Positions 9,323 to 21,170 are shown, numbered from the stretch's first letter. The stretch is 64,000 nucleotides of DNA from an uncultured Eubacteriales bacterium (GCA_949294555.1 CASFHP010000008.1:583-64582), one strand, 5' to 3'. The notes: generated by a model not told the origin, from the sequence alone. Translations and numbers: made by a program.

Positions 9323-10357
9323 ATGATAGAAAACATGAAAGTGTCAGAATTTGATTATGATTTACCAGAAGAACTAATTGCACAAACACCAATAGAAAAA
9401 AGAGATGAATCTAGGTTGATGGTATTAGACAGAAGTAAACAAACAATAGAGCATAAGATATTTAAGGATATTATAGAATATTTAGAACCAGGAGATTGTT
9501 TGGTTAGAAACAATACAAAAGTTATACCAGCAAGGATTTATGGAAAAAAAGAAACAGGTGCCCATGTAGAATTTTTATTATTAAACAATATAGAAGGCGA
9601 TATATGGGAAAGTATTGTAAGACCAGGCAATAAGTTACATGTAGGCACAAAAGTAATTTTTGGTGATGGTCTATTAACAGCTGAAATTTTGGAAATTATG
9701 CCAGGAGGAACAAGAAAAGTAAAATTCACATATAAAGGCATATTTAATGAAATCTTAGATAAAATCGGTCTAATGCCTTTACCACCATATATTCATGAAG
9801 AATTAAAAGATAATGATAGATATCAAACTGTATATGCAAAATATGAAGGTTCAGCAGCAGCTCCAACAGCAGGATTGCATTTTACACCAAAGTTATTGAA
9901 ACAAATAGAAGAAAAAGGTGTGAAAATTGCAAATGTTACATTACATGTTGGCATAGGCACATTTAGACCAGTAAAAGAAGAAAATGTAGAAGAACATCAA
10001 ATGCATACAGAACATTTTTATATCAAACAAGAAGATGTTGACAAAATAAATGAAACAAAAAAACAAGGAAAAAGAGTCATTGCAGTAGGAACAACCTCTT
10101 GTAGAGTATTGGAAACCATTGCAGATGAACATGGAATGGTAAAAGAAACAGAGGGAGACACGGGAATATACATATATCCAGGATATCATTTTAAATGTTT
10201 AGATGGATTAATTACCAATTTTCACTTACCACAATCCACTTTGCTAATGCTTGTATCTGCATTAGCAGGAAAAGATTATATCATGAAAGCATATAATGAA
10301 GCAGTTAAAGAAAAATATAGATTTTTTAGTTTTGGAGATGCAATGTTTATCAAATGA
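9323..10357 (+). CDS. queA: S-adenosylmethionine:tRNA ribosyltransferase-isomerase
   Basis: [45 protein letters not shown]. Confidence 0.98.
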
Positions 10358-18446: not shown

Positions 18447-18649
18447 GCAAAGGTAATATATATAATATTTTTTAAGTTCTCCTGTTCATTACATTCAAAA
18501 AGAATTCATAATGCTTTCTCATGAGCCTCTTTCACTCAGACCCTCACTACGTGAGTACCGTGAACATTCCTCATTTGAAAGCTAAATGAATTCTAATTTT
18601 CATTCCAATCAAGCGTCGAAACTTAAAAAATATTATATATTACCTTTGC
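18447..18649. repeat. 203-bp rod-hairpin element (copy E)
   Basis: About 30-bp IR 18447-18478/18620-18649; core 18522-18573 identical to copy B. Confidence 0.9.
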
Positions 18650-18714
18650 GTACGAAAAAAAATATATATAAATTGTGATATTGTAAAAGTAACTATAAAT
18701 GGAGGTTAAGATAA

Positions 18715-19137
18715 ATGTTAAGTAAAGAACAAATTAAAGAAATTATCCCACAAAGAGAACCATTTTTAATGATAGATGAAGTGGAAGAATATATACCAGG
18801 AGAAAGTGCCGTAGCATATAAAAATGTGAGTGAAGATGAATATTATTTCAAAGGACATTTCCCAGGAAATCCAATTATGCCAGGTGTACTAATTGTTGAA
18901 TCACTAGCACAAACTGGTGCAGTTGCTATCCTTTCTATGGAAGAAAATAAAGGAAGAAATGCTTTATTTGGTGGAATCGACAAACTACGTTTTAAAAGAC
19001 AAGTTGTTCCAGGAGATAGATTAAAATTAGAAGTAAAAATCATTAAGAGAAAAGGTCCTATTGGAATTGGGGAAGCATTAGCAACTGTTGATGGAAAAGT
19101 AGCAGTCAAAGGAGAACTAACTTTTGCGATTGTATAA
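18715..19137 (+). CDS. fabZ: 3-hydroxyacyl-ACP dehydratase
   Basis: [38 protein letters not shown]. Confidence 0.95.
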
Positions 19138-19153
19138 AATCTAATAATGTAAA

Positions 19154-19188
19154 AAAATAAATTGCAATTTTAAATTGCAATTTATTTT
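19154..19188. terminator. Terminator hairpin after fabZ
   Basis: aaaataaattgcaattt...aaattgcaatttatttt palindrome. Confidence 0.65.
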
Positions 19189-19200
19189 AAATCATAAAAA

Positions 19201-19409
19201 TTTTCTTAGAGTCCAATACTTAAGGAATAAATAACTAAAAATATAATAGCAATAAAACATTGTGAAGTCAATACTTATAGGACAAAAAATAGAGAATTTT
19301 AAAATTTTATAAAATAAAAAAATAGAAAACAGAAATAGTTTGTAAAGTTAGATATAACAAGCTATTTCTGTTTTTTTATTTATTCCTTAAGTATTGGACT
19401 CTAAGAAAA
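19201..19409. promoter_or_regulatory. Candidate invertible promoter switch (OFF orientation)
   Basis: 34-bp perfect IR 19201-19234/19376-19409 enclosing a minus-strand TTGACT-17-TATTAT promoter (19271-19243) and a plus-strand terminator (19326-19377). Confidence 0.7.
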
Positions 19410-19520
19410 ATAAAAGAAGTAAAAATGTAAAAAAGAAACAAAATAGAAAACGGATTGCTAAAATACAATTTAAGTGAAAAAGAGAAAATGAATAAACAGA
19501 AGAAGGAGGATTTTTGTAAG

Positions 19521-21170
19521 ATGAAAAAACCAGAAAGGCAAAGAAGTAATGGGATTACTTTAATCGCACTAGTCATAACTGTGATTGTATTGTTAATATT
19601 GGCTGGAATTACAATAAGTGCCATAACAGGAGAAAATGGAATTATAGGAAATGCTGGAAGAGCCAAAGAAGAAACAGAAATAGCCAATGAAAAAGACATT
19701 TTGGAAAAAGCAACCGTGCAGGCAATGGGAAATAACAAGTATGGAAATATTGAAGAAGAAGAATTACAAGAGCAACTAGACAAAGAAACAGGAGAAGGAA
19801 AAACAGAGGCAAGAGATGTTGGAGAAGAGTTTGAGGTATTATTCAAAGAAAGTAACAGATATTATACTATTGATAAAAATGGAAATGTAGGAGAAGCAAA
19901 TACATATGAAGAAGACAAATATCCAGGAGATATTACTGTTGGAAAAGATGGAGAAAAATTAGATGGAAATACAGAAGAAACAGCATATCAAATTTGGTGT
20001 ATAGAAGATTTGGTGGCATTTTGCAACATGGTAAATGGAGAAGGTATAAGACTAGAAAATGGAGAAGCAGTACCAATAACATATAGAAATAGCTTTGCTT
20101 CTAAATATGTTGTACTAAAAGCAAACTTAAATTTTAAATCTAATTTGTCATATCAGAATAGTGAAAGAACAGACTTTGGGGATATTAATGGAAATACAGA
20201 AGATGGGAATACTTTGATAAATGAAATGACAACAGGAACAGGTTTTAAACCAATAGGAACAGGTGGTACTTTTGCAGGAAATTTTGATGGAGACAGTCAT
20301 GAGTTAAAAAATATCCATATTAATTGTCCAGAAAGTACAGTAGGACTATTTGGAACAATAGGTGGAACTACTAATGAAGTGAATATACAAAATATAACGA
20401 TTTCTGGAAATATGATAGGTAGTACGGGAGGTGGCATTGTTGGTTATGTGAATATGACTTCAGAAGCACCAACAGAAAATTTAATAACAATAGAAAATTG
20501 TATTAATAATGCAACAATAGAAACGACAGATACAAGTGGAGGAATTGTAGGATATCGATCAACCAATAATGATACTAGAAGTCTAATTATTGCAAATTGT
20601 ATAAATAATGGAACAATTGAAGGAACAACTTCAGGAGGAATAATAGGAATGGCTTATAGAACGGTAAAGATTATTAATTGTTGCAATAGTGGAAATATAA
20701 TTAATAATCAAAATACAGGAAGCTACATTGGAGCAGGCGGTATTGTTGGAACCAGTATGTATAAAATTGCTATTATTAATTGCTATAATTTAGGAAATAT
20801 AGAATCAAAAGGAAATGCAGGAGGAATTATAGGATATTCGTATTGGGCAGAAAAAAGTATAGAAAATTGTTATAGCATAGGAAAAATATCTGGAAGTGTT
20901 GCTGGTGGTATTATAGGAGGGTTAAACTTAAGTAATGATTTACTAACTACAAAAAATTGCTATTATTTGAATACCAATATTTCAAAAGGAATTGGTGGTT
21001 GGAATTCTAGTGCAGAAGCATTGGAAGATATCCAAGGGGTTACAGATACGGAAATGAAATCAAGTGAAATATTAGGAATATTCAATCAATATGTAACAGA
21101 AAATAAAACAAAAGAAGGAATTGATTTAAAAAGTTGGATACAAGAAAAAGATGGATATCCAATATTTTAG
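19521..21170 (+). CDS. Type IV pilin-like N-terminus fused to GLUG/GGIVG-repeat domain (putative adhesin)
   Basis: RBS aaggagg; RSNG|ITLIALVITVIVLLILAGITI class III signal-like; FAGNFDG; repeated GGIVG/NCxNxG units. Confidence 0.75.
   Translation: MKKPERQRSNGITLIALVITVIVLLILAGITISAITGENGIIGNAGRAKEETEIANEKDILEKATVQAMGNNKYGNIEEEELQEQLDKETGEGKTEARDVGEEFEVLFKESNRYYTIDKNGNVGEANTYEEDKYPGDITVGKDGEKLDGNTEETAYQIWCIEDLVAFCNMVNGEGIRLENGEAVPITYRNSFASKYVVLKANLNFKSNLSYQNSERTDFGDINGNTEDGNTLINEMTTGTGFKPIGTGGTFAGNFDGDSHELKNIHINCPESTVGLFGTIGGTTNEVNIQNITISGNMIGSTGGGIVGYVNMTSEAPTENLITIENCINNATIETTDTSGGIVGYRSTNNDTRSLIIANCINNGTIEGTTSGGIIGMAYRTVKIINCCNSGNIINNQNTGSYIGAGGIVGTSMYKIAIINCYNLGNIESKGNAGGIIGYSYWAEKSIENCYSIGKISGSVAGGIIGGLNLSNDLLTTKNCYYLNTNISKGIGGWNSSAEALEDIQGVTDTEMKSSEILGIFNQYVTENKTKEGIDLKSWIQEKDGYPIF

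Follow-up and report, generated by a model that had tools for sequence, protein, structure and literature searches.

The question raised by this locus is whether the DNA between positions 19201 and 19409, upstream of a gene for a large protein with a pilin-like N-terminus, is a promoter switch that can be turned around by recombination and, if so, which enzyme would flip it. The window analyzed here is a stretch of 64,000 nucleotides (G000:C8:583-64582, from contig C8) of an uncultured Eubacteriales bacterium, whose genome assembly, G000, comprises 1.90 Mb in 68 contigs with 28.5% G+C. A preliminary description of the window had read this stretch as an invertible promoter and terminator segment lying in the OFF orientation. 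From comparisons made at the sequence level, we consider it likely, with a probability of roughly 0.8, that it is an invertible promoter switch, OFF in the assembly, flipped by a tyrosine recombinase acting in trans, and one of at least 24 of its kind. The early reading gained its support from the at least 24 homologous cassettes, from ON copies with recombinant junctions, from matched centres in the repeat arms and from linkage of a recombinase to cassettes in sister species; current flipping at this locus, the enzyme responsible and the outcome for expression are the parts of the reading that we infer. The features needed to follow the argument are given below.

18715..19137, plus strand: fabZ-like gene, the final gene of the upstream fatty-acid operon (PF07977, E 3.1e-33)
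19154..19188, no strand: perfect A+T-rich palindrome (17-1-17) between the fabZ stop and the left arm (repeat search, I7)
19201..19234, plus strand: left, gene-distal repeat arm (exact 34-nt match; register from a 22-cassette comparison)
19235..19375, no strand: putative invertible segment of 141 nt between the arms, here in the OFF orientation, homologous to 12 other cassette interiors
19243..19271, minus strand: predicted promoter TTGACT-17-TGcTATTAT, facing away from the gene (promoter scan, 10/12 plus TG)
19267..19282, plus strand: third repeat-core copy, degenerate and overlapping the -35 (read in the sequence; I9 of the repeat search)
19320..19381, no strand: hairpin preceded by an A-run and followed by a T-run (folding and compensatory changes)
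19376..19409, minus strand: right, gene-proximal repeat arm, an inverted copy of the same core site (exact 34-nt match; 22-cassette comparison)
19410..19520, plus strand: leader from the right arm to the start codon (sequence; RBS GGAGG at 19505-19509)
19521..21170, plus strand: regulated gene, an ORF of 549 aa with a pilin-like N-terminus (NGITLIALVITVIVLLILAG) followed by GLUG-like repeats of about 33 aa

The perfect 34-bp inverted repeat around 141 bp that had been described at the outset is exact, i.e., the locus has the short segment bounded by inverted repeats by which invertons are recognized. The repeat is unique to this place in the window, where two matches and no others were found at up to three mismatches, and 0 of 100 shuffled sequences gave a match; imperfect complementarity extends further, to 56 nt at 82% (I1). 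The left arm is formed by an outer part, TTTTCTTAGAGT (19201-19212), an asymmetric centre, CCAAT (19213-19217), and an inner part that starts with ACTTAAGGAATA (19218-19234). The core site of this locus is thus written TTTTCTTAGAGT-CCAAT-ACTTAAGGAATA, and the centre of the right arm is again CCAAT, read on the minus strand at 19397-19393.

The segment contains a predicted promoter on the minus strand, with -35 TTGACT at 19271-19266, a spacer of 17 nt, and -10 TATTAT at 19248-19243; its score of 10/12 plus TG agrees with the extended -10 promoter facing away from the gene that was reported in the preliminary description. This is the best of seven promoter-like sites in 18600-19700, all of which are on the minus strand; the promoter scan found none on the plus strand of this region and thus none from fabZ to the ATG. 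A match to the promoter consensus alone is weak evidence, because the number of sites in this region is not above that of shuffled sequences (5.5 +/- 2.1). The promoter box is conserved in 24 cassettes, and by sequence the predicted promoter would face the gene in one orientation of the segment only, which is the other property expected of an inverton.

The plus-strand hairpin with seven T, also noted earlier, was recovered by folding: the region 19312-19384 reaches -22.6 kcal/mol (z -6.9) on the plus strand and is followed by seven T, and it folds on the minus strand with -16.7 kcal/mol (z -5.9). A simple terminator scan returned 0 sites at the locus. Across the eight cassettes of family A, a set that includes the window locus, the hairpin is supported by 19 consensus pairs, seven of them with compensatory changes, and its appearance is that of an intrinsic terminator working in both directions, which would shield the switch from the fab operon. 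On the gene side, the ribosome-binding site and start codon lie where they had been placed before, with the ATG at 19521 positioned 11 nt past the GGAGG at 19505-19509. On the other side, the fabZ-like gene is the left border of the switch and stands outside the switch proper; FabF-, BCCP- and FabZ-like genes are found upstream of the cassette, and a phosphofructokinase gene downstream of the regulated gene. The palindrome at 19154-19188 has T-runs at either side and may be a two-way terminator, both for the fab operon and for the outward transcript of the OFF promoter. The third copy of the repeat, which had been proposed to overlap the -35, is present at 19267-19282, where 15 columns match with two single-base indels and the centre is one base short and out of register (by eye); nevertheless, it is not conserved in the alignment of the seven other family-A cassettes and is probably incidental.

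Further copies of the repeat in front of other GITLIAL-type genes were what the preliminary description had led one to look for, and many exist. The repeat core recurs genome-wide as inverted pairs approximately 170-190 nt apart, and the first 15 pairs found were all (15/15) beside a gene whose product has a hydrophobic N-terminus of the GITLIAL/GITLLAL type. An alignment of 13 cassettes (A1) revealed four conserved parts: the two arms, the promoter box by one arm, a variable A-rich stretch, and the T-run hairpin by the other arm. A census of the promoter box, carried out independently of the repeats, gave 24 boxes in G000, each of them within a cassette or at one; an inverted pair surrounds 22 of them, and the remaining two are within 40 nt of a contig end. 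The count of cassettes is given as at least 24, with additional ones that were recognized by eye and have other centres or no matching box (C10:586, C21:52987, and partial ones at contig ends). The short cassette at C21:52987-53095 has 65 nt between its arms, and of the usual parts it retains the terminator hairpin but no longer the promoter, so that the 161-aa pilin-like gene that follows would be without a switchable promoter.

When the 24 boxes were scored by script, 19 were OFF, one was ON (C33), and four had no gene near. The box at C19:21143, however, is OFF too, given that a gene at C19:21536 encodes an AITLIAL N-terminus, and the final tally is 20 OFF, one ON, and three located 38-336 nt from contig ends. 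Both ARRANGEMENTS exist among the cassettes: C33 and three loci from other assemblies (L105, L168 and L171) are ON, and most others are OFF. In C33, which holds a run of N, an outer flank of the gene-proximal type is joined, by way of the core, with the end of the interior that carries the promoter, and this joint is the junction predicted by inversion. Contigs that end inside cassettes (C48, C32, C4 and C34) were considered as a sign of mixed orientations and set aside, given that the breaks fall in the interior common to the cassettes, i.e., they are ordinary repeat breaks.

The arms themselves point to the class of enzyme. Core sites of tyrosine recombinases (lox, FRT, dif and att cores) consist of a pair of symmetric arms flanking a short, asymmetric centre, which is matched between partners; the overlap is 6-8 bp in this class, and serine invertases make a 2-bp stagger. 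When 22 cassettes were compared, the arms could be placed in a common register, with an outer part TTTTCyTAGAGT, a 5-nt centre and an inner part ACTCTAAGAAAA. In all 22, two inverted arms surround a short asymmetric centre; the complementarity of the arms to each other covers 6-9 of 9 positions, and the centre, which is never symmetric, has 13 different forms in G000. The two partner arms of a cassette carry an identical centre in 21 of the 22, against a mean of 2.5 and a maximum of 10 when partners were shuffled (10,000 shuffles), so that partner sites share their putative overlap as core sites of tyrosine recombinases do. The second arm of C33, beside the run of N, has the same centre as its partner by direct reading, and the lone exception is C39, with a difference of 1 nt. 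The centre TCAAT is common to several loci, so the centres are not all private. Distances from centre to centre range from 167 to 193 nt (21 cassettes). Given the odd length of the centre, a 7-bp overlap (T-NNNNN-A) would be a better fit than the 2-bp stagger that serine invertases make, and the conservation of the centres suggests that identity between partners is needed. Heterospecific variants of lox and FRT, which have the same arms and different spacers, recombine only with a partner that has the same spacer; those variants are man-made, whereas the variation of the centres described here would be natural and, judging from its conservation, would work in the same way.

No recombinase had been seen in the window, and a profile search of the whole genome agrees with this, since none of its 11 tyrosine-recombinase (PF00589) and 10 serine-recombinase (PF00239) matches is on C8. 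Among the tyrosine recombinases, C10:44833 is XerD, above the model cut-off; C2:105126 is an XerC-like protein of 327 aa, found in four of five relatives, two of these without detected cassettes; and three further ones have 402-450 aa. Two candidates were discarded: C3:53512, which is in a mobile-element region and has no orthologue in the five relatives, and the split recombinases at C5:8454-9270 and C50:620-1429, which belong to an IS91-like element. The candidate invertase is G000:C10:39462-40394, an intact frame of 310 aa in which the R, H-x-x-R and Y motifs were recognized by eye. Its domains are Phage_integrase (116 bits) and a SAM_3-type N-terminal domain, and its nearest relative among solved structures is the Tn1549 integrase (E 2.6e-20). 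With the FimB/FimE-type models it stays below both cut-offs, at 30 bits for NF007370 (cut-off 221) and 21 bits for NF007371 (cut-off 222). About 17 gut MAGs, whose titles name uncultured Clostridia, Clostridium or Eubacteriales, contain orthologues with 73-93% identity.

The distribution of this recombinase among relatives connects it with the cassettes. The sister species G010 has one orthologue (93%), and G024 has five paralogues (51-55%), each of which directly adjoins a pilin-like gene; no counterpart was found in G015, G019 and G004. At locus L105 of G024, the gene is followed by an arm, a promoter that faces the gene, the second arm and the recombinase, and adjacency of recombinase and cassette recurs in further relatives. 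At another locus, L135 (G042:C6), inverted core sites at 1351 and 2464, with centre ATGTA, flank the recombinase gene itself, so the enzyme would invert the gene that encodes it. A member of this family is present at E <= 1e-40 in 22 of 80 genomes of the genus, with exactly one copy in G000. The dyad TAGAGT-N5-ACTCTA occurs at least eight times solely in G000 (17), G010 (8), G059 (15) and G061 (22), precisely the four genomes in which the recombinase match has an identity of at least 76%. The dyad TTAAGT-N5-ACTTAA occurs at least five times in eight genomes, all of them recombinase-positive, although this pattern is noisier because the reversed-pattern control reaches 11 in one genome. With both patterns summed, the 10 genomes with at least five sites are all (10/10) among the 22 positives, and the maximum in the 58 negatives is four (G069, in which a spaced inverted pair is present and no recombinase matches at E <= 1e-40); 12 of the 22 positives have fewer than five sites of the two arm types searched. 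These counts overstate independence, and the association is no statistical proof, because the compared genomes are kin. On the basis of its adjacency to cassettes in relatives and its co-occurrence with the sites, C10:39462-40394 is most likely the invertase.

The closest orthologues after that of G010, at G059:C16:7703-8634 and G061:C26:8131-9061 (loci L109, L110, L132 and L133), are interrupted by stop codons. G059 and G061 keep their 15 and 22 TAGAGT-N5-ACTCTA sites despite the interrupted frames, which may be assembly errors, the result of a recoding event, or the mark of locked switches.

It could be argued that the cassettes are flipped by a different enzyme, i.e., the XerC-like protein C2:105126, XerD or one of the serine recombinases. 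The XerC-like protein is 100% identical in G010, 70-75% identical in G015, G019 and G024, and not found in G004, a genome that is also without the pilin-like gene family; moreover, ten genes for serine recombinases are available in G000. However, G015 and G019 have the XerC-like protein together with 20-31 pilin-like genes, and no cassette was seen at the loci read and 0 dyad sites were found. The serine-recombinase frames are mostly of 480-630 aa, with one short frame of 172 aa, and the long ones are of the phage or mobile-element type; the odd 5-nt centre fits a tyrosine-type overlap of 6-8 bp better than a serine-type 2-bp stagger; and in relatives it is the family of C10:39462, and no other, that adjoins cassettes. 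We therefore judge the participation of a different enzyme to be unlikely, and retain the 310-aa recombinase as the candidate in what follows.

The same cassette design was found in other genomes and in metagenomes, and these provide further information about orientation. In G010, six cassettes of the same families lie upstream of pilin-like genes, all six OFF, with matched centre pairs (CAGAT/CAGAT, TCCAT/TCCAT and CAGGA/CAGGA); matched centres were also recognized by eye in cassettes of G024, G079, G082, G074, G054 and G042. L105 was scored ON by script, and L113, L115, L117 and L127 were scored OFF by eye, a reading that was needed given that their -35 variants (TTGAAA, TTGCAA) are outside the script pattern. 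A metagenome scan with the promoter box returned 119 loci; among the 80 that were read, 16 are cassettes and the other 64 are unrelated. Of these cassettes, 11 are OFF, two are ON (L168 and L171) and three are without an orientation call. An exact 27-mer of the repeat gave 0 matches in the metagenome contig collection. One identical cassette was present in five metagenome contigs (L174, L178, L182, L216 and L229), with centre TCAAT and arms CATTAAGT/CCTTAACG; three of these contigs are titled human gut metagenome, two are known by accession alone, and the cassette is OFF in 4/4 scorable contigs. Among 19 fabZ loci of other species, a pilin-like gene follows fabZ in G010 only, and without a cassette there: positions 1930-2680 of L023 (G010:C13) contain fabZ, a small minus-strand ORF and then the pilin-like gene. 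The module of cassette plus gene after fabZ is thus not common even to close species.

At the window locus, the information about orientation comes from assembled contigs. The stretch is found in 20 public runs, in all of them as contigs, and the labels, where given, are metagenome, gut, faeces and chicken gut metagenome. In three of the four runs examined (X1, X2 and X17), it is covered by pieces corresponding to 18900-19230, 19205-19405 and 19380-19648, with no differences inside the cassette. These contigs stop 30 nt into each 34-nt arm, i.e., the word length minus one of a word-31 assembly, and such breaks say nothing about flipping because any inverted repeat longer than the word of the assembler breaks likewise. 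In the fourth run (X5), one contig of 392 nt with depth 4 spans 19251-19579 collinearly, and in the OFF arrangement only; a joint of this run that skips 108 was set aside, given that one of its sides has 22 nt at 90% likeness. Thus, OFF is the one orientation read at the window locus, from a single X5 contig, and both arrangements are found among paralogues and relatives.

Another reading of the locus is that of a locked or fossil switch, i.e., a descendant of an inverton that no longer flips here, its gene being silent or expressed otherwise. This would be in line with OFF as the only state wherever the locus is readable, with the 20/21 scorable cassettes that are OFF in G000 and the 6/6 in G010, and with the broken orthologues of the recombinase in G059 and G061. 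Nevertheless, the arms are identical over 34 nt, centre included, the 310-aa frame of the candidate recombinase is unbroken and has the usual motifs (by eye), one paralogous cassette is ON in the same assembly, and consensus assemblies show the majority state only. A switch that has lost its ability to flip thus appears rather improbable.

A third alternative is that nothing is inverted and the region is static, the arms being operators for a DNA-looping regulator and the outward promoter producing a small divergent RNA. Dyad-symmetric sites at a fixed distance of 167-193 nt would suit a looping repressor. However, such an arrangement leaves unexplained why the asymmetric centres vary by locus and yet are matched between inverted partners, and why homologous interiors occur in both orientations (C33, L105, L168 and L171), and we consider it very unlikely. 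Finally, it is hardly credible that the unit is a MITE, bounded by terminal inverted repeats, which inserted itself in front of genes, the alternative raised in the preliminary description, for although about 20 dispersed copies have terminal inverted repeats and an IS91-like element is beside two cassettes, neither target-site duplications nor unrelated insertion sites were found (the longest word shared by the flanks has a mean of 4.41 nt versus 4.19 in shuffled flanks, the highest shuffled value being 4.77), the cassette has a fixed place and polarity next to the pilin-like gene in 21/21 scorable cases, and the arm centres differ between copies and match within a copy.

Under the preferred reading, that of an invertible promoter flipped in trans, the switch would operate as follows. 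In the OFF state, the sole good promoter would face away from the gene, and the two-way terminator by the gene-proximal arm would stop transcription arriving from the fab operon. Flipping would be due to a tyrosine recombinase with its gene elsewhere, which would bind the two dyad-symmetric core sites (TTTTCTTAGAGT-CCAAT-ACTTAAGGAA) and, by strand exchange within the asymmetric centre, turn the 141-nt segment around. In the ON state, transcription would start at about the inner edge of the right arm, producing a leader of approximately 145 nt to the ribosome-binding site and the ATG at 19521; the terminator would then be upstream, and the switch would still be insulated. Each of the at least 24 switches would control one member of a family of 29 pilin-like proteins, and with one switch per gene each cell would probably show only a few of the 29. 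The heavy predominance of the OFF state, 20 to 1 in G000 and 6/6 in G010, counts against this reading.

Regarding the protein under control, its designation as a pilin-like adhesin stands in part. The N-terminus fits; however, the Pfam model N_methyl gives 17.7 bits, below its cut-off of 21.2, and the Glug model also stays below its cut-off, with 18 bits (20.5). The 549-aa product therefore lacks the PF07963 match above cut-off by which a type IV pilin is recognized, and it also lacks the Glu at +5, where it has Ala (G-ITLIA). No NCBIfam model matched this product, and Glug and N_methyl are found in the nearest Atlas clusters, a result taken as a lead only. Direct repeats of 99 nt (33 aa) are located at 20483-20918 of the gene (D1 and D2), with the pattern IENC.N.G.I...SGGIIG, and these are GLUG-like repeat units. 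There are 29 genes with a pilin-like N-terminus in G000, and the genome carries a gene with a prepilin peptidase domain together with PilB- and PilT-like ATPases. A type IV pilus operon is located at G000:C22:197-9445, with PilC-, PilT- and PilB-like genes, two small pilin-like genes, a peptidase and a pilin of 134 aa. The N-terminus of this pilin, RGITLIALVITIIVLLILAG, is the same as in the 29 large proteins, with Ala in place of the canonical Glu at +5. By sequence, the switched products may be regarded as modular pilin-like proteins, which could possibly make use of the pilus machine.

Invertible promoters are a known route to surface variation in gut bacteria, and the well-studied cases that involve multiple loci are the capsules of Bacteroides, C. 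difficile and the lipoproteins of mycoplasmas. In E. coli, the invertible promoter fimS precedes a pilus subunit gene and is flipped by the tyrosine recombinases FimB and FimE; in contrast with this single locus that has its recombinases alongside, the candidate described here reaches 30 bits on NF007370, whose cut-off is 221. In Mycoplasma penetrans, the enzyme that acts on the mpl genes is a tyrosine recombinase. There are 38 mpl genes in this organism, each turned ON or OFF by inversion of its own promoter (PMC10502178). The likeness of the mpl genes (P35 family) to the present case is that of a large family of surface-protein genes with a promoter inversion for each gene, and the differences are that lipoproteins are involved there and pilin-like proteins here, in another organism.

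Another point of comparison is RecV of C. difficile, a tyrosine 'master' recombinase that acts on short invertible segments (cwpV, flgB, cmr and others; PMC5903667). The resemblance is that the gene for the enzyme is distant from its targets, which in C. difficile are several segments upstream of surface and motility genes; in contrast, the seven sites there have mostly unrelated repeats, whereas at least 24 homologous cassettes with one site design are found here, and the candidate is nearest to the Tn1549 integrase among solved structures. Mpi of Bacteroides fragilis is one enzyme that acts on at least 13 scattered invertible promoter regions, giving combinatorial surface variation (PMC5903667). 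Multiple invertible promoters over the genome and one enzyme (a candidate here) are shared with that system as it is described there, but Mpi is a serine recombinase that serves polysaccharide loci, in contrast to the tyrosine-type-looking sites and protein genes of G000.

Invertons of group 139, with 'invertase group 35', are described from gut Clostridia of the defined community hCom2; the main text of PMC11892184 reports 33 of them, 32 from Clostridia, with a tyrosine recombinase near each, and orientation shifts that were measured in culture. Both systems concern Clostridia with a tyrosine recombinase (a candidate here), and the word 'pilin' occurs 0 times in that text. The literature search found no paper on invertons before pilin-like genes in such Clostridia, and the PhaseFinder and DeepInverton catalogues may already list such cassettes. 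Our verdict is that of a probable multi-locus invertible-promoter regulon for pilin-like proteins, invertible promoters being in themselves of a known kind.

A more ambitious proposal, which we hold tentatively and at slightly less than even odds, is that a single orphan tyrosine recombinase, a relative of the Tn1549 integrase, serves the at least 24 switches, that these have natural 'heterospecific' centres, and that the result is a set of combinatorial phase-variable adhesins displayed via a single type IV pilus machine. If this is true, locus-specific centres would allow a single enzyme to act on every switch and would keep exchange between different switches low. A site design with the same arms and with varying centres that are matched between partners amounts to a natural experiment in recombinase specificity, and could explain how many switches coexist without scrambling the chromosome. 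An uncultured lineage of gut Clostridia with a small genome appears to devote at least 24 switches to 29 pilin-like proteins; it comes from chicken and other gut or faecal metagenome runs and, by record titles, from chicken and human-gut MAGs. Consensus assemblies of such organisms would hide most of the expression states of these adhesins, and one enzyme with many orthogonal sites would represent a compact, testable set of interest for synthetic biology.

A last observation concerns the IS91-like element mentioned above, which is composed of a tyrosine integrase followed by a zinc-finger transposase and is present in two copies, at approximately G000:C50:415-4303 and G000:C5:8200-9575. The same frame shift, located after HSLRH, is seen in the integrase of both copies. 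The C50 copy splits a pilin-like gene within the conserved N-terminal coding region, and the C5 copy abuts a cassette remnant at 9400-9575 that consists of the terminator, the promoter and one arm.
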